DNA of 41,666 nt from a virus (lineage: Duplodnaviria; Heunggongvirae; Uroviricota; Caudoviricetes): positions 1-41,666 of the IMG/VR virus record IMGVR_UViG_2526164631_000048; one strand, given 5' to 3'. The notes beneath the pieces were generated by a model, which saw only the letters and a program-made list of their open reading frames with translations, was not told the origin of the DNA and ran no database searches. Every line of letters begins with the position of its first letter. The stretch's first letter is position 1. The position numbers and the translations under genes were made by a program. This document shows, in pieces, positions 557 to 41,290 of the stretch.

Positions 557-991
557 ATGCATCTAGAAGTCTCTATTAATCCAGAAACTAGAGCTGAATT
601 TTTTGATGAAGTTTTTCTCAAATTCCCAGAGCTAGAGTCTTCTATCATTGATGATTTCAAGAGATACAAAGCAACCGGTGAGCTTCCGCATTATTTCGGT
701 AGGGACGTTGCGTATACTCAGCCTTATGGTGCTTTTCGGGCTGGGTTGATGCATATCCATCTTTGTCTACCGCCAAACAAGTTTCCCGAGAAACTTCCAC
801 AACCGGATAGGGTCTGCAAGAAAGGTGATCCTGATAATGATGCTTGTCTTGTGTATGTCCAAGGTGAGCTTTATGAGAATAAATATTCACTCATTGCTAT
901 TATGTATCCCGATGCACATGAAAAAGCAAGAAAACATGATGTGATGAGCTATCTGGCGCGAATTGCCCAGAATTATAAAGATGAAAACTAA
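557..991 (+). CDS. YafO-family toxin-like protein (ribosome-dependent mRNA interferase family)
   Basis: 144 aa; motifs FGRD..Y, HIHL, LVY.QG, LIAI..P..H.KAR align with my recollection of E. coli YafO; followed by terminator. Confidence 0.5.
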   Translation: MHLEVSINPETRAEFFDEVFLKFPELESSIIDDFKRYKATGELPHYFGRDVAYTQPYGAFRAGLMHIHLCLPPNKFPEKLPQPDRVCKKGDPDNDACLVYVQGELYENKYSLIAIMYPDAHEKARKHDVMSYLARIAQNYKDEN

Positions 992-3570: not shown

Positions 3571-4200
3571 TTACTCACCTTCTTTGATGCGAATGCCAGC
3601 GGCGCGTGGCACATTAACTTCCACGATGCGCACAGTTGGTTTGTACATCTCAATCGCTGTCAGCCAGTCAGCGCCGGTCATATGCTTTTCTGCATCGCCA
3701 TTAGTCCATTGAACCGGCACACCAATAGCTTTCATCGCAATTTCTATTTCCCCGGCAATGGCGCTTTTCCCGCAACCAGTAAAACCAGAGACAACGACAA
3801 GAACTTCGCCTTTGGCTGGTTTTATTTCCCGTGCTTCCAGTTCTGCTATGCGCTTCTCTGCGGCTTCCAGCTTGGCTTCTGCATCTTTGGCTCGCATCTG
3901 CCAGTTGATAGCGATGTCGATAACGCTGTTAGCACAACTGGACTCGTTCTCTTCGGCAGCTTTAGCTTCAGAAAGCTCATCAAGCAATCCAAGAACAACA
4001 GTTGGCGTGGCGAGCGTGATAAAACGCATATTGCTCATATGCTCTTCATCGCTGACCTCATCTCCAGCCTCGACCGCTGCCATGTGCTGAACATAGCCGC
4101 TATCACAGGTATTCCAGATTGCCCCTGCCTCGTAACCCCATTCACCATGTAGTGCTTTTTCTGCCGCCTCACGCAGTGCCTGGTAATTAATTTCGCTCAC
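3571..4200 (-). CDS. Ead/Ea22-like protein
   Basis: 209 aa; coiled-coil AEAKLEAAEKRIAELEA; typical position in lambdoid early-left region. Confidence 0.55.
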   Translation of the reverse strand: MSEINYQALREAAEKALHGEWGYEAGAIWNTCDSGYVQHMAAVEAGDEVSDEEHMSNMRFITLATPTVVLGLLDELSEAKAAEENESSCANSVIDIAINWQMRAKDAEAKLEAAEKRIAELEAREIKPAKGEVLVVVSGFTGCGKSAIAGEIEIAMKAIGVPVQWTNGDAEKHMTGADWLTAIEMYKPTVRIVEVNVPRAAGIRIKEGE

Positions 4201-4889
4201 TGACAGCCTCCTTTGCGAAGCTCTGCAGCGAAATATACAGCTGCGGAAACAATAGCTGCATGTCGGTATTCACCATCAGAAAAGAGAGAATCTCCCTTAA
4301 GTGCATTGACGATACTCTGATGATTTTTTGCCAGCATCTCCACACCCTGCGCCCGTACTTCAGCCAGGAAAGCATCTGTAGCCGGGGTTTGCGGCATACC
4401 TCCGTCTGTTGCGCAGATATACGCATCAGATAGTTCATCCTGCTCGCCATCAAACACGTAGCAACTCTGTGCGATAAATTTATTTAGCCCCGCATTCTCC
4501 GCCGCCAGCGCCGCGCAATTACCCTCCAGCTCTGCAATGCGCTGTTTTGCAGCATCAAGTTCAATCGATAATTTTTCCAACTGCTCTTTATGCTTCTTGT
4601 ATTCCTGATATGCGTGCCAGGACTGACCTTTGCGCACACTATCAGTAATATCAGTAATCTGTTCTGGTGTTAGCGTGGTCAGTGGCTGTGCTGGGAAAAT
4701 CAGCACTTTCCCGGAATCCCAATCAAAACCAGCGTGAATTGACTGAACCTCAACTGAGGGTGTTGAACCAATGCTGCCAGGCGAATGAACAACGATCGTT
4801 ACATCCATATCGCGACGATGGCTGTGGTTGTTGGACAAAATACGATTCACCAACTCAGAAAATTTGGAGAATTTCATGCGGAGCCTCAA
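4197..4889 (-). CDS. Ead/Ea22-like protein (paralog)
   Basis: Coiled-coil AKQRIAELE; shares a near-identical ~50-aa block with 5293..5877. Confidence 0.55.
   Translation of the reverse strand: MRLRMKFSKFSELVNRILSNNHSHRRDMDVTIVVHSPGSIGSTPSVEVQSIHAGFDWDSGKVLIFPAQPLTTLTPEQITDITDSVRKGQSWHAYQEYKKHKEQLEKLSIELDAAKQRIAELEGNCAALAAENAGLNKFIAQSCYVFDGEQDELSDAYICATDGGMPQTPATDAFLAEVRAQGVEMLAKNHQSIVNALKGDSLFSDGEYRHAAIVSAAVYFAAELRKGGCQ
4371..4518. repeat. Direct repeat copy A (~150 bp, near-identical to 5538..5697)
   Basis: Long identical runs seen directly, e.g. gcgcagatatacgcatcagatag...gccccgcattctccgccgccagcgccgcgca. Confidence 0.8.
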
Positions 4890-5296
4890 TATGCAAAATA
4901 GACCGTTGCCACGCCGTTATAGTGATCAAACGATACGGCGTTTACTTCATAGCTGGCAGGGAGCTTCGAGCCGAGAACATATCCGGGCCACGTTTTCCAT
5001 GGAATTTCTCTACTCTCACTACCCCCATATACCGTACATCCAAGTGAACCTACAGCCTCGTCAGAACGTTTGCCGCATGTTATGAAACCTATATTTTTCT
5101 TGCTGGTCTTAATGGCGATTGGGTGAACACTGGCTGATGCATTGGCAGCACGCTGTGACTGTTGGTTTGCGATATTCGCAGAGTTCGCAGCAGCTACAGC
5201 AGCCATGGTCGCGGCGGTAGATGCCACAATAACTGCTGAAGCCTGCGCCTGTTGGGTAATGGTCAGCAATGCCGCCACAAAAATCATCTTCTTCAC
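4886..5296 (-). CDS. Secreted/periplasmic hypothetical protein with Ala/Ser/Asn/Gln-rich linker
   Basis: GTG start with AAGGAG RBS; signal-peptide-like MKKMIFVAALLTITQQAQA; two Cys in C-terminal part. Confidence 0.45.
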   Translation of the reverse strand: MKKMIFVAALLTITQQAQASAVIVASTAATMAAVAAANSANIANQQSQRAANASASVHPIAIKTSKKNIGFITCGKRSDEAVGSLGCTVYGGSESREIPWKTWPGYVLGSKLPASYEVNAVSFDHYNGVATVYFAY

Positions 5297-5877
5297 TTGT
5301 CAGCTCCTTTGCGAATCTGTTCCGCCCATTCTTCAAGGGATTTCTCCGCATATTCACCGGACAGGCCATCAATCGGGTGCGGTTCATTAGCCAACTCTTC
5401 TTTCGCTGACAGAATCATGCGCGTAACGTCGAAAACTTCACGTAAAGACTTATTGATAAATCCGTGGTTGAAAGCAGCAGCAAGACGGCTTGCGGTATAG
5501 TTAATCCCCTCGTTGCGAGCCGCCGCACGAATTTCAGCCAAAAAAGCATCGGTGGCTGGGGTTTGCGGCATCTTTCCGTCTATTGCGCAGATATACGCAT
5601 CAGATAGCTCATCCTGCTCGCCATCAAACACGTAGCAACTCTGTGCGATAAATTTATTTAGCCCCGCATTCTCCGCCGCCAGCGCCGCGCACTTGGCCTC
5701 AAGGTTATCAATCGTGATTCCAGCAGAACGGCACTCCCGCAACGCCGTTTCTAGTTTTGATTCAAGTTCACCGAACTTACGCACCAGGTATTCAGCATCC
5801 GTTTCATTCACTTTCAGATCTTGCGGTACACATTTCCCGAGAAGAAACCATTCCATTTCGAAAACATTCATGCGCAT
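5293..5877 (-). CDS. Ead/Ea22-like protein (paralog)
   Basis: Shares the block CAALAAENAGLNKFIAQSCYVFDGEQDELSDAYICA with 4197..4889. Confidence 0.55.
   Translation of the reverse strand: MRMNVFEMEWFLLGKCVPQDLKVNETDAEYLVRKFGELESKLETALRECRSAGITIDNLEAKCAALAAENAGLNKFIAQSCYVFDGEQDELSDAYICAIDGKMPQTPATDAFLAEIRAAARNEGINYTASRLAAAFNHGFINKSLREVFDVTRMILSAKEELANEPHPIDGLSGEYAEKSLEEWAEQIRKGADK
5538..5697. repeat. Direct repeat copy B (~150 bp, near-identical to 4371..4518)
   Basis: Same sequence block as copy A, seen directly. Confidence 0.8.
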
Positions 5878-16164: not shown

Positions 16165-16222
16165 TTTTCTGGAGGTCAATAATGCAGGGCGAAAAGCAGC
16201 AGCCATATTTTTTAACCCTGGT

Positions 16223-16426
16223 ATGACTGTTGAACAGCTTGAAGACTGGCTGGAGCAGCAAAAGCTTCATCTAAGCCGCTATAACCGTCTGGTAAAAGAA
16301 AAAGCAGAGCTTGAAGAACGGCTCAGTGATATTTCTGTGGAAATTGAACGAATGTCTGCTGGTGGTTTTAACGGAAAGTTGAGTTTCCCTTGGGAGTCAA
16401 GTTCGCTTCTGAGAAATCATCAATAG
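16223..16426 (+). CDS. Hypothetical small coiled-coil protein (67 aa)
   Basis: ORF between the late terminator and holin; no clear RBS. Confidence 0.25.
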   Translation: MTVEQLEDWLEQQKLHLSRYNRLVKEKAELEERLSDISVEIERMSAGGFNGKLSFPWESSSLLRNHQ

Positions 16427-19292: not shown

Positions 19293-19643
19293 ATGCCGCC
19301 ACGAATCCCAAAAGCCTGCCGTGTTCGCGGTTGCCGCCATACCACCACAGATCCGTCAGGCTATTGTGAAAGCCACAAAAGCGAAGGCTGGAAGCAATAC
19401 AAACCTGGACAATCCCGTCATCAGCGCGGCTACGGTTCGAAGTGGGACAGTATCCGCGTGCGCATATTGAAGCGTGACAAAGGCCTGTGTCAGTTATGTC
19501 TGCGTGCTGGTGTGGTGCGTGAGGCGAAAACCGTTGACCACATCATTCCTAAAGCGCATGGCGGCACTGATGCCGACAGTAATCTGCAGAGTCTGTGCTG
19601 GCCCTGCCATAAGGCGAAGACGGCCCGTGAACGGTTAAAGTGA
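19293..19643 (+). CDS. HNH endonuclease (terminase-associated)
   Basis: CRVRGC...C, DHIIPKAHGG, CWPCH motifs; directly upstream of terminase small subunit. Confidence 0.7.
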   Translation: MPPRIPKACRVRGCRHTTTDPSGYCESHKSEGWKQYKPGQSRHQRGYGSKWDSIRVRILKRDKGLCQLCLRAGVVREAKTVDHIIPKAHGGTDADSNLQSLCWPCHKAKTARERLK

Positions 19644-19768: not shown

Positions 19769-20263
19769 ATGGCTGGAACGGCGGGGCGTTCCGGGCGTCG
19801 CCCCAAGCCAACGGCGCGCAAGGCGCTGGCCGGAAACCCCGGCAAGCGAGCCCTGAATAAAGATGAACCTGTTTTTACGCCCATCAAAGGTGTTGAGCCA
19901 CCGGAGTGGTTCGCTGAAGAAGATCTCCCTCTCGCTACGATCATGTGGCAACTGACAACTAAAGAACTCTGCGGTCAGGGCCTGCTGTGCGTGACTGACC
20001 TTGCGGTGCTTGAGCGGTGGTGCGTGGCCTACGAGTTCTGGCGACGTGCCGTGAAAAATATTGCCAGACAGGGCAACACCATCACCGGTGCAATGGGCGG
20101 CAGGGTCAAAAATCCGGAGCTGACTGCCAAAAAAGAACAGGAGTCCGAGATGAGCAGTACGGGGGCAATGCTCGGACTCGACCCCAGCAGCCGCCAGCGT
20201 CTGATTGGCCTGGCGGGGAAGAAGAAAGCCACTAACCCGTTTCTGAAAATTATCGAATCATGA
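19769..20263 (+). CDS. Terminase small subunit (P27-like)
   Basis: AGGAG RBS 8 nt before ATG 19769; position before large terminase. Confidence 0.6.
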
Positions 20264-21992
20264 GCCGGAAATCTTACCCCAACGTAAATGCTGCCAATCA
20301 GTATGCCCGTGATGTCGTGCGCGGAAAGATTGTGGCCTGCCAGTTTGTGATTCAGGCCTGCCAGCGCCATCTTGATGACCTGATGGCGGAAAAAGTAAGT
20401 CGTTTCGTTACCGCTTCGACAAGGACCTGGCTGAACGGGCCGCCAAATTTATTCAGCTGTTGCCGCACACCAAGGGTGAGTGGGCATTCAAGAGGATGCC
20501 CATCACGCTGGAGCCGTGGCAGCTATTTGTGGTCTGCTGTGCGTTTGGCTGGGTCAATAAAGGGTCCCGGCTGCGCCGCTTCCGGGAGGTGTATACCGAA
20601 ATCCCCCGTAAGAACGGCAAATCGGCAATCTCTGCCGGTGTTGCCCTGTATTGTTTTGCCTGTGATAACGAGTTCGGCGCGGAAGTGTATTCCGGTGCCA
20701 CGACAGAGAAACAGGCGTGGGAAGTCTTTCGCCCGGCGCGACTGATGTGTAAACGCACCCCCATGCTGACGGAAGCGTTCGGGATTGAGGTTAACGCCTC
20801 AAACATGAACCGTCCGGAGGATGGCGCGCGGTTTGAACCGCTGATCGGCAACCCAGGTGATGGTTCATCACCCCACTGTGCCGTGGTTGATGAATATCAC
20901 GAGCATGCCACCGATGCGCTTTATACCACAATGCTTACCGGGATGGGGGCGCGACGTCAGCCACTGATGTGGGCCATCACCACCGCCGGGTACAACATTG
21001 AGGGGCCGTGCTACGACAAGCGGCGGGAAGTCATCGAGATGCTCAACGGCTCGGTGCCTAACGATGAACTGTTCGGGATCATCTATACCGTTGATGAAGG
21101 TGACGACTGGACCGACCCGCAGGTGCTGGAAAAAGCCAATCCAAATATTGGCGTGTCGGTTTATCGCGAATTTTTGTTAAGTCAGCAGCAGCGTGCGAAA
21201 AATAACGCCCGTCTGGCAAACGTCTTTAAAACAAAACACCTCAATATCTGGGTGTCGGCGCGTTCGGCGTATTTCAACCTGGTGAGCTGGCAGAGCTGCG
21301 AGGATAAATCACTGACCCTTGAGCAGTTCGAGGGGCAGCCGTGCATTCTGGCCTTTGACCTGGCGCGTAAGCTGGATATGAACAGCATGGCGCGACTTTA
21401 TACCCGCGAGATTGACGGTAAAACGCATTACTACAGTGTGGCCCCGCGCTTCTGGGTACCGTATGACACGGTGTACAGCGTCGAGAAAAATGAAGATAGA
21501 CGGACAGCCGAACGCTTTCAGAAATGGGTGGAAATGGGCGTCCTGACCGTTACCGATGGTGCAGAGGTGGATTATCGCTACATCCTCGAGGAGGCCAAAG
21601 CGGCGAACAAAATCAGCCCGGTCAGTGAGTCACCCATCGACCCCTTCGGGGCGACCGGGCTGTCACATGACCTTGCTGATGAAGATCTGAATCCCGTCAC
21701 TATCGTCCAGAACTTCGCCAATATGTCCGATCCGATGAAAGAGCTGGAAGCAGCGATTGAATCGGGACGCTTTCATCATGACGGCAATCCCATCATGACC
21801 TGGTGTATCGGCAATGTGGTCGGCAAAAACATGCCAGGTAACGATGATTTAGTGAAGCCCGTCAAGGAGCAGGCGGAAAACAAAATCGATGGTGCGGTTG
21901 CACTGATTATGACGATCGGTCGGGCAATGCTCAAAGAACCTGACGATTTCCTCTCATCTCTTGATCCGGACGATGATCTCTTAATTCTATGA
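20260..21992 (+). CDS. Terminase large subunit, reading frame interrupted at an A5 run near 20390..20394 (N-terminal ~44 aa in one frame, remainder in another)
   Basis: Protein-like N-terminus in the 20260 frame turns to junk after MAEK; the other frame opens at 20379 and continues as ...[27 protein letters not shown]... with DEYHEH motif; one extra A would fuse them. Confidence 0.7.
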
Positions 21993-22150
21993 AATCACTA
22001 ATTGCTGATGTTATCGGGCTGGCTGGTTTTGGCCTGCTTACGTGCGGGGTTTACCTGCAGTTTGGTATGGCTCCGGCTCTGATTTTGTCCGGTGCTTTAC
22101 TGCTGGTGGGCGCACTGGCTATGGCCAGAAGGGGGACGCGTGCTGCTTGA
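21989..22150 (+). CDS. Small hydrophobic protein (53 aa)
   Basis: ATG overlaps terminase stop (ATGA); two predicted hydrophobic segments. Confidence 0.3.
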
Positions 22151-23366
22151 TGCTCTGTTCAGAAGTAAATCACTGGAGAATCCTTCCACCCCGATAACCG
22201 GTGATGCCGTTGATACTGATGGGCTGTTCCGGGCAGACGTTTATGTCAGTCCTGAGACTGCGATGAAACTGGCTGCGGTGTATTCCTGTATCTATGTCCT
22301 GTCTTCCAGCCTTGCCCAGATGCCGTTGCATGTTATGCGCAGGCACAAGGGGAAGGTTGAACCCGCACGCGATCATCCGGCGTTTTATCTGGTTCATGAT
22401 GAGCCCAATACCTGGCAAACCAGCTACAAATGGCGCGAACTGAAGCAACGTCACATCCTTGGCTGGGGGAATGGGTATACCTGGGTGAAACGTAATCGTC
22501 GCGGTGAAGTTATATCCCTGGATTGCTGTATGCCGTGGGAAACGACGCTGATGAATACTGGTGGCCGATATACCTACGGTTTGTACAACGAATATGGGGC
22601 GTTTGCGATCAGTCCGGACGATATGATCCACATCCGTGCGCTGGGTAATAATCAGAAGATGGGGCTGAGTCCGATTATGCAACATGCCGAAACAATAGGC
22701 ATGGGGATGAGCGGTCAGAAGTACACAGAAAGCTTCTTCAGCGGTAATGCCCGTCCGGCGGGGATAGTATCCGTTAAAAGCGGACTCAATAAGGAAAGCT
22801 GGGGCTGGCTTAAAGATCAGTGGCAGAAGGCATCGCAGGCGTTACGCCGCCAGGAAAACAAAACCATGCTGCTGCCAGCCGATCTGGATTACAAGGCACT
22901 GACTGTGTCGCCAGTTGACGCTCAGATCATTGACATGATGAAGCTGAACCGTTCAATGATCGCCGGTATTTTCAATATTCCTGCGCACATGATTAATGAC
23001 CTCGAAAAAGCCACCTTCTCCAATATTTCTGCGCAGGCGATTCAGTTTGTCCGCTACACGATGATGCCGTGGGTGACGAACTGGGAGCAGGAGCTTAACC
23101 GTCGCTTGTTTACCCGCGCTGAGTTAGCCGCCGGGTATTACGTCAGGTTCAATCTGACGGGGCTTTTACGCGGAACTCCGCAGGAGCGCGCGCAATTCTA
23201 TCACTTCGCTATTACCGATGGATGGATGAGCCGTAATGAGGCCCGCGCATTCGAGGATATGAATCCGGTTGAAGGGCTGGACGAGATGCTGGTAAGCGTG
23301 AATGCTGCTAACCCGGCAGGAGATTTTAAGCCCCCAAAAAACGATGAGGGAAAAACCAATGAATGA
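22140..23366 (+). CDS. Portal protein (HK97 family)
   Basis: ~410 aa; start uncertain (GTG 22140 or GTG 22092); position after terminase. Confidence 0.75.
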   Translation: MLLDALFRSKSLENPSTPITGDAVDTDGLFRADVYVSPETAMKLAAVYSCIYVLSSSLAQMPLHVMRRHKGKVEPARDHPAFYLVHDEPNTWQTSYKWRELKQRHILGWGNGYTWVKRNRRGEVISLDCCMPWETTLMNTGGRYTYGLYNEYGAFAISPDDMIHIRALGNNQKMGLSPIMQHAETIGMGMSGQKYTESFFSGNARPAGIVSVKSGLNKESWGWLKDQWQKASQALRRQENKTMLLPADLDYKALTVSPVDAQIIDMMKLNRSMIAGIFNIPAHMINDLEKATFSNISAQAIQFVRYTMMPWVTNWEQELNRRLFTRAELAAGYYVRFNLTGLLRGTPQERAQFYHFAITDGWMSRNEARAFEDMNPVEGLDEMLVSVNAANPAGDFKPPKNDEGKTNE

Positions 23367-37039: not shown

Positions 37040-37510
37040 ATGCATCGTATAGACACGAAAACCGCGCAGAAGGATAAGTTCGGCGCGGGTAAGAACGGTT
37101 TTACCCGTGGTAACCCCCAGACCGGCACGCCTGCCACCGTTCTGGATGATGACTACTTTGACATGTTGCAGGAAGAACTCTGCAGCGTGGTGGAGGCATC
37201 CGGTGCCAGCCTGGAGAAGGGGCGGCACGATCAGCTTCTTACCGCGCTTCGTGCGCTGCTGTTAAGCCGCAAGAATCCGTTTGGCGATATCAAATCGGAT
37301 GGCACTGTGCAAACGGCTCTCGAAAACCTGGGAATGACAGACATTCTGAATGATAAACAGGATAAAAATGATAATCTGACATCATTGTCGAGCTTAACAG
37401 GAATACCGGATGGGCTGGCATTTTTTACAGGTGCCGGAACAATGGATATGACAGCGCTGACTCAAAATGGCAGGGAAATTTTAAGTAAAAAAACGTATCG
37501 GAAACTCTAA
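37040..37510 (+). CDS. Tail fiber protein, conserved N-terminal part (possibly separated from its C-terminal part by a frame shift at an A7 run)
   Basis: N-terminal [32 protein letters not shown] motif typical of tail fibers; ends at stop 37508..37510 just after A7 (37487..37493). Confidence 0.6.
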
Positions 37511-37545: not shown

Positions 37546-38139
37546 TTGGGGGTTCAGGCATTTGGATCATCTGGGACTTATATCAAATCACCTGGTGTAA
37601 CGAAAATTATAGTGGAAGCCGTTGGCGGAGGTGGTGCCAGTGGTAATTTGTCGGCAACTGCATCTGGTAACTGTGGTGTAAGTGCTGCCGGTTCCAACGG
37701 GGCATATGCTAAAGCATTTTTTTATCAGTCTATACCTGAATCCGTGCAAGTAACTATTGGAAGCGGTGGTGTAGCAGGAACAGGACCAGGAGGCTCTGGA
37801 GGTGACGGCGGGAATACAAGCTTTGGTGATTTGCTTGTATGTCCGGGAGGAAGGGGATCAACTCAAGTTCAGCAGGTACCTCCATTTTCAGGGGGAAGTG
37901 CAACAGAAGCACCAATTCCTACAGGGCAAGGGATTCTGTTCCATTCAGTTTCACGATCAAATTTATGTGGGGCACTTGGACTTGGTGATGATCAGGCGAT
38001 TGGCGTTGAAAGTATAACCACTACTATGCTTGGGATATACGGTATTGGCGGGACAGGTAAATACAATAAGGCGTCATCAGGTCCAGCGACAGGAAATAAT
38101 GGAAATCAGGGATATATTCTTGTGTGGGAGTATCAGTAA
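37546..38139 (+). CDS. Gly-rich tail fiber distal/receptor-binding part (frame open from 37489; TTG start at 37546 after AGGAAGG)
   Basis: 197 aa Gly/Ser-rich; lower GC; in a different frame that overlaps the end of 37040..37510. Confidence 0.5.
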   Translation: MGVQAFGSSGTYIKSPGVTKIIVEAVGGGGASGNLSATASGNCGVSAAGSNGAYAKAFFYQSIPESVQVTIGSGGVAGTGPGGSGGDGGNTSFGDLLVCPGGRGSTQVQQVPPFSGGSATEAPIPTGQGILFHSVSRSNLCGALGLGDDQAIGVESITTTMLGIYGIGGTGKYNKASSGPATGNNGNQGYILVWEYQ

Positions 38140-39066: not shown

Positions 39067-40164
39067 TCAAGAGGTCTTATTTCTGCTCCTTTGGAGCTCT
39101 TCAAAACGATTATGTAAAGATTTCGGATACAGTTCGGTATATACCTGCCATAGCACGTTTAATGAACGATGCCCTGTAACCTGGGCGACTTCCTCAATAC
39201 TAAAACCAGCCTCAAATAAGCGACTTGCCCCTTCTCTACGCAAATCATGGTATCGCAGATCTTTAATACCTAATTTGCTTCTTACCCTCTGGAATCCCGC
39301 AGTAACAGAAGTGCTGTTATATGGAAAAATGAATTCTGATTTTTTGGGTTGTCGTTGGACGATATCCCAGGCTTCCCCAAGCAAGGCTACTTTCATATGG
39401 TTGCCTTCCTTTTTACGTGGATCTTTCCTGTCTCTTACGAGTATGGATTTTTGTTCCTGATCGAGATCCTCCCATCGTAATCGGCATACTTCACCGATTC
39501 GCATACATGACCACACAGAAAATTTGAGGATATCAACGAACGGAATTTTTGAGCATTTATGTGTAGATCGTTGTTGAAGACCTTCAATGAGCATGTCCAG
39601 TTCATCAGATGCCGGTCTACGATTACGACGATTTGATTTACCAATTAACCCAAGTTTAAGTAGATATGGACGAGCGGCTTTTGCTGGGTTTGATGTGTAA
39701 TTAATTCCATATACAGGTTTGGCAGCATCCAGAACACTGCCAAGATAACTAACATCGTGGCTAACTGTAGCTGGACCTGCACCAGCGTTGTTTCTTAGCC
39801 TGCAATGTTCAATTACGTCATTTTCTGTCAGTTCAGATAGTTTGATCGCGGAGATGTCACTATCCATAAGCAGTTCCAGCACATATCTTTTAGTACGGCC
39901 TGCTTTACCTCCGGCATTTGGGTCATTTAAATATTTGTGTAGTAAGTCACGGACTGTAAGTCCGTCAACTGCATTTGATGATGGAATGCCATATAGATCT
40001 AATTCCATCACTTTCTGTGTGCCCCATGTTTTGGCATGAGCATGTTTAGGGAATGTTTTGCTTTCCCTGTAAGTGATAACACCTTTTTCTTTGATAATCA
40101 CATTACAGCGATAGCGTGGTGTGCCATCGGATTTTAGTCGTTTCTCTATGTTATAGTACGCCAT
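39067..40164 (-). CDS. int: Tyrosine recombinase integrase (dusA-specific integrase type)
   Basis: 365 aa; R...H..LR..Y catalytic signature (HDLRREGAS, LWQVY); divergent from and adjacent to dusA. Confidence 0.85.
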   Translation of the reverse strand: MAYYNIEKRLKSDGTPRYRCNVIIKEKGVITYRESKTFPKHAHAKTWGTQKVMELDLYGIPSSNAVDGLTVRDLLHKYLNDPNAGGKAGRTKRYVLELLMDSDISAIKLSELTENDVIEHCRLRNNAGAGPATVSHDVSYLGSVLDAAKPVYGINYTSNPAKAARPYLLKLGLIGKSNRRNRRPASDELDMLIEGLQQRSTHKCSKIPFVDILKFSVWSCMRIGEVCRLRWEDLDQEQKSILVRDRKDPRKKEGNHMKVALLGEAWDIVQRQPKKSEFIFPYNSTSVTAGFQRVRSKLGIKDLRYHDLRREGASRLFEAGFSIEEVAQVTGHRSLNVLWQVYTELYPKSLHNRFEELQRSRNKTS

Positions 40165-40252: not shown

Positions 40253-41290
40253 ATGCACGATAATCATGAAACACAAAAAATTAATCAAACCAGCGTGATG
40301 CCTGAAAAAACTGGTGTTTACTGGAATTCTCGGTTTAGCATTGCTCCTATGCTCGACTGGACGGACAGACATTGCCGCTATTTCTTGCGTCTGCTTTCCC
40401 GCAATACGTTGCTGTATACCGAAATGGTGACCACAGGGGCGATTATTCACGGTAAAGGTGATTATCTGGCGTACAGTGAAGAAGAACATCCGGTAGCGTT
40501 GCAACTGGGCGGTAGCGATCCGGCGGCGCTGGCGCAGTGTGCAAAGCTGGCAGAAGCGCGCGGATATGATGAGATCAACCTGAATGTCGGCTGCCCGTCT
40601 GACCGGGTGCAGAACGGCATGTTTGGTGCGTGTCTGATGGGTAATGCGCAGCTGGTTGCCGACTGTGTGAAAGCGATGCGCGATGTGGTGTCGATTCCAG
40701 TGACGGTGAAAACGCGTATTGGCATCGATGACCAGGACAGCTATGAATTTCTCTGCGATTTCATCAACACTGTTTCCGGCAAAGGCGAGTGTGAGATGTT
40801 TATCATCCACGCACGTAAAGCCTGGCTTTCGGGGTTAAGCCCGAAAGAAAACCGTGAAATCCCGCCGCTCGATTATCCGCGTGTGTATCAACTGAAGCGT
40901 GACTTTCCGCATCTGACAATGTCGATTAACGGTGGTATCAAGTCGCTGGAAGAGGCCAAAGCACACCTGCAACATATGGATGGCGTGATGGTCGGGCGCG
41001 AGGCGTATCAGAATCCGGGTATTCTGGCGGCAGTAGACCGGGAGATCTTTGGTTCCTCGGATACCGATGCCGATCCGGTGGCGGTAGTGCGCGCCATGTA
41101 TCCGTACATTGAGCGTGAACTCAGCCAGGGGACGTATCTCGGCCATATTACCCGGCATATGTTGGGCTTGTTCCAGGGTATTCCTGGCGCGCGGCAGTGG
41201 CGGCGTTATTTAAGTGAAAATGCCCATAAAGCGGGTGCAGACATTAATGTGCTGGAACACGCGCTCAAACTGGTGGCGGATAAGCGTTAA
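40253..41290 (+). CDS. dusA: tRNA-dihydrouridine synthase A (DusA); start may be ATG 40298 (MPEKTG...)
   Basis: Flavin-dependent Dus motifs ([23 protein letters not shown]); 5' end lies at the prophage junction. Confidence 0.85.

Follow-up and report, generated by a model that had tools for sequence, protein, structure and literature searches.

The closest described relatives of the terminase large subunit (TerL) gene considered here are orf2 of phage SfV (NP_599034.1) and the E. coli prophage copies represented by WP_000088169.1, the annotated TerL of strain 12A. We compared them with a viral DNA sequence of 41,666 nucleotides, the whole of which is referred to as the window. Gene order and protein domains of the SfV and E. 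coli prophage copies are the same as in the window, and a 331-nt region around the point where the window TerL is interrupted is 97.3% identical at the DNA level to SfV. The window gene differs from SfV and WP_000088169.1 only in the length of an A run, which is five instead of six nucleotides long and splits the open reading frame (ORF) of the window.

The head and packaging module is encoded on the + strand in the order HNH endonuclease, terminase small subunit (TerS), TerL, a 53-aa ORF, portal, HK97 prohead protease and major capsid protein. Predicted ORFs, the annotation of 12A and Pfam searches place TerS upstream of TerL, and portal, prohead protease and major capsid protein downstream of it. 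TerS corresponds to a 495-nt CDS annotated in both 12A and FDAARGOS_1059, and its stop codon TGA (20261-20263) overlaps the TerL start codon ATG (20260-20262) as ATGA. Once one A is inserted in the run, the repaired TerL contains a TerL_ATPase domain (PF03354; residues 86-256, E 1.6e-26) and a C-terminal, RNase H-like TerL_nuclease domain (PF20441; residues 268-560, E 2e-34). The repaired protein also matches the sequence of the HK97 TerL structure 6z6d (E 4.7e-26), and its Walker A P-loop PRKNGKS (residues 116-122) aligns with ARKNGKT of the latter. Since both Pfam domains are recovered in the repaired protein, the pattern obtained by joining the two frames is not one of chance. TerL of the window is a typical representative of the HK97/SfV family and has no new feature as a gene.

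The prophage is located in the 5′ end of dusA, with the integrase gene (39067-40164, − strand) adjoining dusA (40253-41290); in 12A a dusA 5′ fragment is present just left of the window. A YafO-family toxin gene is found at the left end of the window (557-991), and the 179-aa protein with which the window starts is also encoded on a Logan contig of SRR14865946. No gtr serotype-conversion genes are present between the tail-fibre region and int of the window, unlike the Shigella SfV-group phages, which have such genes there. A direct repeat of 168 bp (4350-4517 and 5524-5691; 92% identity with 13 mismatches and no gaps) lies inside two minus-strand ORFs of the early region (4197-4889 and 5293-5877), which suggests a domain shared by the two or a partial duplication.

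In the window record the TerL reading frame is interrupted. The ORF beginning at ATG 20260 continues beyond the residues DDLMAEK as unrelated sequence until the stop at 20743-20745, while a second frame, open from 20379 after a TGA at 20376-20378, reads to the stop at 21990-21992. The run at 20390-20394 is the only point where joining the two frames matches the homologues. An earlier note on this DNA had placed the switch between two TerL frames at this run of five A (A5), and frames, stops and the gap relative to homologues, which carry six A (A6), all agree with that placement. It had also expected one extra A to yield an ORF of about 577 aa; insertion of one A gives exactly 577 aa, identical to WP_000088169.1. 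Alignment to intact terminases, as the note had proposed, shows a single gap at the A5 run with respect to both SfV and FDAARGOS_1059, each of which has A6. The split is attributed to the record and not to the gene; the out-of-frame end of the 161-aa ORF results from the missing base and is not part of any gene product. When the 161-aa frameshift product and a 510-aa ORF starting with TTG were looked up as exact sequences, the protein collection returned neither; its gene caller had used other starts than those of these two ORFs. The features are collected in Table 1.

Table 1. Features at and around the interrupted TerL gene, in window coordinates
Feature	Position	Strand	Basis or remark
Second contraction, T6 (T7 in 12A and FDAARGOS_1059)	16208..16213		Alignment
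HNH endonuclease	19293-19643	+	Head/packaging module of the window
Terminase small subunit, P27 family	19769..20263	+	Pfam PF05119 Terminase_4, E 5.9e-21
TerL codons 1-45 (MSRK...DDLMAEK), true 5′ part of the gene	20260..20394	+	526 phage records have it in the same frame as the downstream part
A5 run, site of a one-base contraction	20390..20394		A6 in SfV, 12A, FDAARGOS_1059, AIHB, AIHC and 965 complete E. coli genomes
TerL codons 46-577 and stop, −1 frame relative to the 5′ part	20394..21992	+	ATPase and nuclease domains
Out-of-frame tail (VSRFVTAST...) of the 161-aa ORF	20395..20745	+	No Pfam match for the 161-aa ORF
Portal	22092-23366	+	Annotated start is an ATG near 22140; 53-aa ORF between TerL and portal
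Third contraction, A7 (A8 in 12A and FDAARGOS_1059)	37487..37493		Alignment

A look-up of the 498-aa product that begins at ATG 20496 found it at 10 places, nine with A6 and one with A5. The single A5 place is contig AIHA01000044.1 (GCA_000250215.2), and four loci of this contig are base for base the same as the window, A5 included. The accessions of the DECA drafts of 2012 (diarrheagenic E. coli; PMC3558956) span a range that includes the AIHA prefix. Aligned over its full length (1-41666) to the complete genome of E. coli O111:H2 strain 12A (NZ_CP077479.1), the window shows no substitution and exactly three one-base deletions, namely T7 to T6, A6 to A5 in TerL and A8 to A7, all of them contractions of A/T runs of at least 6. 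FDAARGOS_1059 differs from the window by the same three gaps and 6 SNPs. Runs of at least 6 number 53 in the 12A stretch and make up 0.8% of its bases, and the chance of three random positions all falling within them is P about 5e-7.

Three intact ORFs of 12A (81 aa, 577 aa and 366 aa) are each interrupted in the window by one of the contractions. The T6 run cuts an 81-aa hypothetical ORF (16182-16426; WP_001437320.1 in 12A) to 14 aa, whereas the A7 run splits a 366-aa tail-fibre-like ORF into ORFs of 156 aa (37040-37510) and 197 aa (37546-38139). The 366-aa ORF has a StfP-like N-terminus and a Gly_rich_2 C-terminus; in 12A it is open over all of its 366 aa, but the PGAP label 'stfP, incomplete' covers only the first 99 codons. 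A fourth contraction, T7 to T6, is present in the next 5.8 kb of the AIHA contig to the right of the window, where substitutions relative to 12A are again zero. It lies about 5.4 kb beyond the window end, in the intergenic stretch between tyrB and a small hypothetical gene, and is also found in AIHB. Overall, the AIHA contig and 12A differ by four run contractions and no substitution in about 47.5 kb. Such a combination is what run-length undercalling would leave behind, and it is unlike the divergence of strains by evolution. With zero SNPs in 47.5 kb, AIHA and 12A appear to be the same strain.

The sister DECA drafts AIHB, AIHC and AIHD carry the same prophage. By SNPs, AIHA groups with 12A, while AIHB, AIHC and AIHD group with FDAARGOS_1059. 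Run lengths are distributed differently: the T6 run at 16208-16213 is present in AIHA, AIHB, AIHC and the Logan read assembly of SRR124116, and the A7 run at 37487-37493 in all four DECA drafts, AIHA to AIHD, whereas both complete genomes (12A and FDAARGOS_1059) have T7 and A8. If these were real mutations, the occurrence of T6 and A7 across both SNP groups would need repeated parallel changes or reversions; a platform undercalling long runs would give the same distribution directly. The run-length alleles thus track the sequencing project and not ancestry, and the T6 shared by AIHB, AIHC and the SRR124116 assembly suggests a systematic undercall. At the TerL run itself A6 is present in both AIHB and AIHC, where a TerL of 577 aa is called, and A5 is private to AIHA among the DECA drafts checked. 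In line with this, a 38-aa antisense ORF whose sequence depends on A5 was found in the AIHA contig alone among 153 billion gene positions. The A8 run is contracted in four of four drafts, two of the T7 runs in every draft covering them and the A6 run in one draft; that longer runs are contracted in more drafts is suggestive only, the sample being small and most A7 and T7 runs being read correctly.

The two alleles are very unequal in frequency. Of 5,426 complete E. coli genomes, 1,115 contain the 331-nt TerL region, 965 the exact A6 36-mer and two (ET201 and AH02) the exact A5 35-mer. About 24 CDS are flagged 'frameshifted' in the 40 kb surrounding the A5 of ET201. In AH02 (NZ_CP081704.1, 'plasmid unnamed3', circular, 43,680 bp) TerL and ymfL are both flagged frameshifted. 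Deposited as a plasmid, the AH02 record comprises an entire SfV-like phage genome in circular form, with int adjoining a dusA 5′ fragment; it probably represents a prophage that was excised or was assembled out of its chromosome. In IMG/VR an A5 28-mer is present in one contig and its A6 counterpart in at least 120 contigs; the A5 contig is a different prophage (96.6% identical) with another contraction, A7 to A6, within the 2.6 kb aligned. Thus A5 recurs only sporadically, in assemblies with other frameshift-type or run-length discrepancies. A query for TerL with A7 gave no match, the query possibly being masked by the low-complexity filter. In a further assembly, GCA_900448305.1 (UARW01000010.1), the same left end of the prophage is seen with plsB in four pieces and with both dinF and a LexA-like repressor gene split; this is another error-rich assembly, and such artefacts are common around the prophage locus.

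The earlier note had left a choice between homopolymer sequencing error and a true inactivating mutation. Zero substitutions, contractions confined to A/T runs, project-linked alleles and A6 in the sister drafts together give strong support to the former, while the latter is not supported. Around the TerL run the flanks are the same as in the relatives and only run length differs, and the other discrepancies are of the same kind. We therefore consider it very likely that A5 is a homopolymer undercall made in sequencing or assembly of the AIHA draft and that the gene is intact in the real DNA. The real DNA would then have A6 and a single 577-aa TerL ORF, translationally coupled to TerS via ATGA, and the locus would be an ordinary HK97/SfV-type TerL gene of an SfV-like prophage integrated in dusA. 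As the cause we infer a technical one, such as flow-based or otherwise homopolymer-prone chemistry.

A genuine deletion would require replication slippage from A6 to A5 in the sequenced stock, cutting TerL after residue 45 and leaving a prophage without packaging, at an early stage of decay or domestication. The break is, after all, present in the deposited sequence, mononucleotide runs are natural hot spots of indels and of real slippage mutation, and an A5 private to AIHA among the DECA drafts is what a recent mutation would look like. The same privacy counts somewhat against an artefact: A6 is a short run, and A5 in only one checked DECA draft is sporadic, unlike the systematic T7 and A8 sites, and fits the expectation for a real private mutation as well. 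However, the deletion would then be one of four run contractions accompanied by no substitution in 47.5 kb, at least two of the other three contractions are project-linked and at odds with the SNP grouping, the SNP-identical complete genome of 12A has A6, and the other A5 assemblies carry further frameshifted genes or run contractions. On balance we consider a genuine deletion improbable. It is equally improbable that the DECA stock held an SfV-like prophage that had recently lost its terminase and was locked into dusA, perhaps with some leakage through low-level −1 re-pairing of tRNA-Lys on A AAA. Were A5 genuine, its recurrence in three other assemblies would mark a mutational hot spot repeatedly disarming this prophage family.

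Two further proposals accept the five A as they stand and keep the gene working, and each has very little to recommend it. In one, the deletion is real but harmless, and translation from ATG 20496 yields a 498-aa TerL (from TTG 20460, one of 510 aa) that keeps both domains. Both Pfam domains (86-256 and 268-560) do lie past residue 80, an AAGAGG precedes ATG 20496, and the match to 6z6d begins at query residue 113 and chain residue 62, HK97 TerL having about 50 fewer N-terminal residues. The automatic gene caller also takes ATG 20496 even at the nine intact A6 loci; these internal starts at intact loci are regarded as a start-site annotation problem and not as evidence for a short protein. They leave an unannotated gap of 234 nt after TerS, and the 498-aa entries of the protein collection are probably N-terminally truncated, missing 79 residues that are conserved across many phages. 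The earlier note had named raw reads with five A, together with a functional shorter terminase starting downstream, as the finding that would count against its reading; such a protein is unlikely, since 526 of the 569 phage records with a match, which range from enterobacterial phages to those of Firmicutes, keep the 45 residues before the break and those up to residue 90 conserved in a single frame. In addition, 20260 is marked as a coupled start by its ATGA overlap with TerS, the AAGAGG abuts ATG 20496 without a spacer, which is a poor geometry for initiation, and the premise of a real deletion is itself unlikely. Restart downstream was rejected on the conserved N-terminus, the ATGA coupling and the missing spacer. 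The other proposal has the split read through by programmed −1 frameshifting or transcriptional slippage, or the A run acting as a contingency tract that switches TerL, and it is just as hard to credit. The shift needed is indeed −1, and tRNA-Lys could re-pair from AAA 20392-94 to AAA 20391-93, so that low background slippage is conceivable. However, GCG GAA AAA G (followed by TA) fails the X XXY YYZ heptamer and leaves room only for re-pairing of a single tRNA on A AAA. For the 95 nt starting at the site the MFE is −24.5 kcal/mol and the mean of shuffled sequences −24.85 kcal/mol (z 0.11), which reveals no stimulatory structure. The two-frame layout is not conserved either, SfV, 12A, AIHB, AIHC and 965 genomes having one A6 ORF. 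Runs of five or six A do not reach the length that efficient transcriptional slippage or phase variation needs, and the ratio of 2 to 965 genomes for A5 to A6 at a tract of only 6 nt is no balanced on/off polymorphism. With heptamer, folding and conservation all against them, programmed frameshifting and phase variation were rejected.

With an undercall as the preferred reading, the locus provides no new biology, and a real deletion would count as an unremarkable case of prophage decay. Taken at face value, however, the break would have the prophage miscalled as packaging-defective, and the AIHA draft has at least two more spurious gene breaks within the window, in the 81-aa ORF and in the tail-fibre-like gene. 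Calls of prophage intactness and of pseudogenes from the DECA drafts or similar assemblies should be checked for run-length errors.

Among known systems, programmed −1 sites such as those of the tail assembly chaperone (G/GT) and of dnaX (A AAA AAG) share with the window an A run at lysine codons and a shift of −1. The window lacks their canonical heptamer and stimulatory structure, and its split is not conserved, the relatives having a single ORF. The pattern in the window is the same as in the class of homopolymer errors described for draft and long-read bacterial assemblies, in which spurious pseudogenes arise: its discrepancies are contractions in A/T runs of at least 6, with no substitutions. 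ET201 resembles this class as well, the same A5 being found there among about 24 frameshifted CDS.
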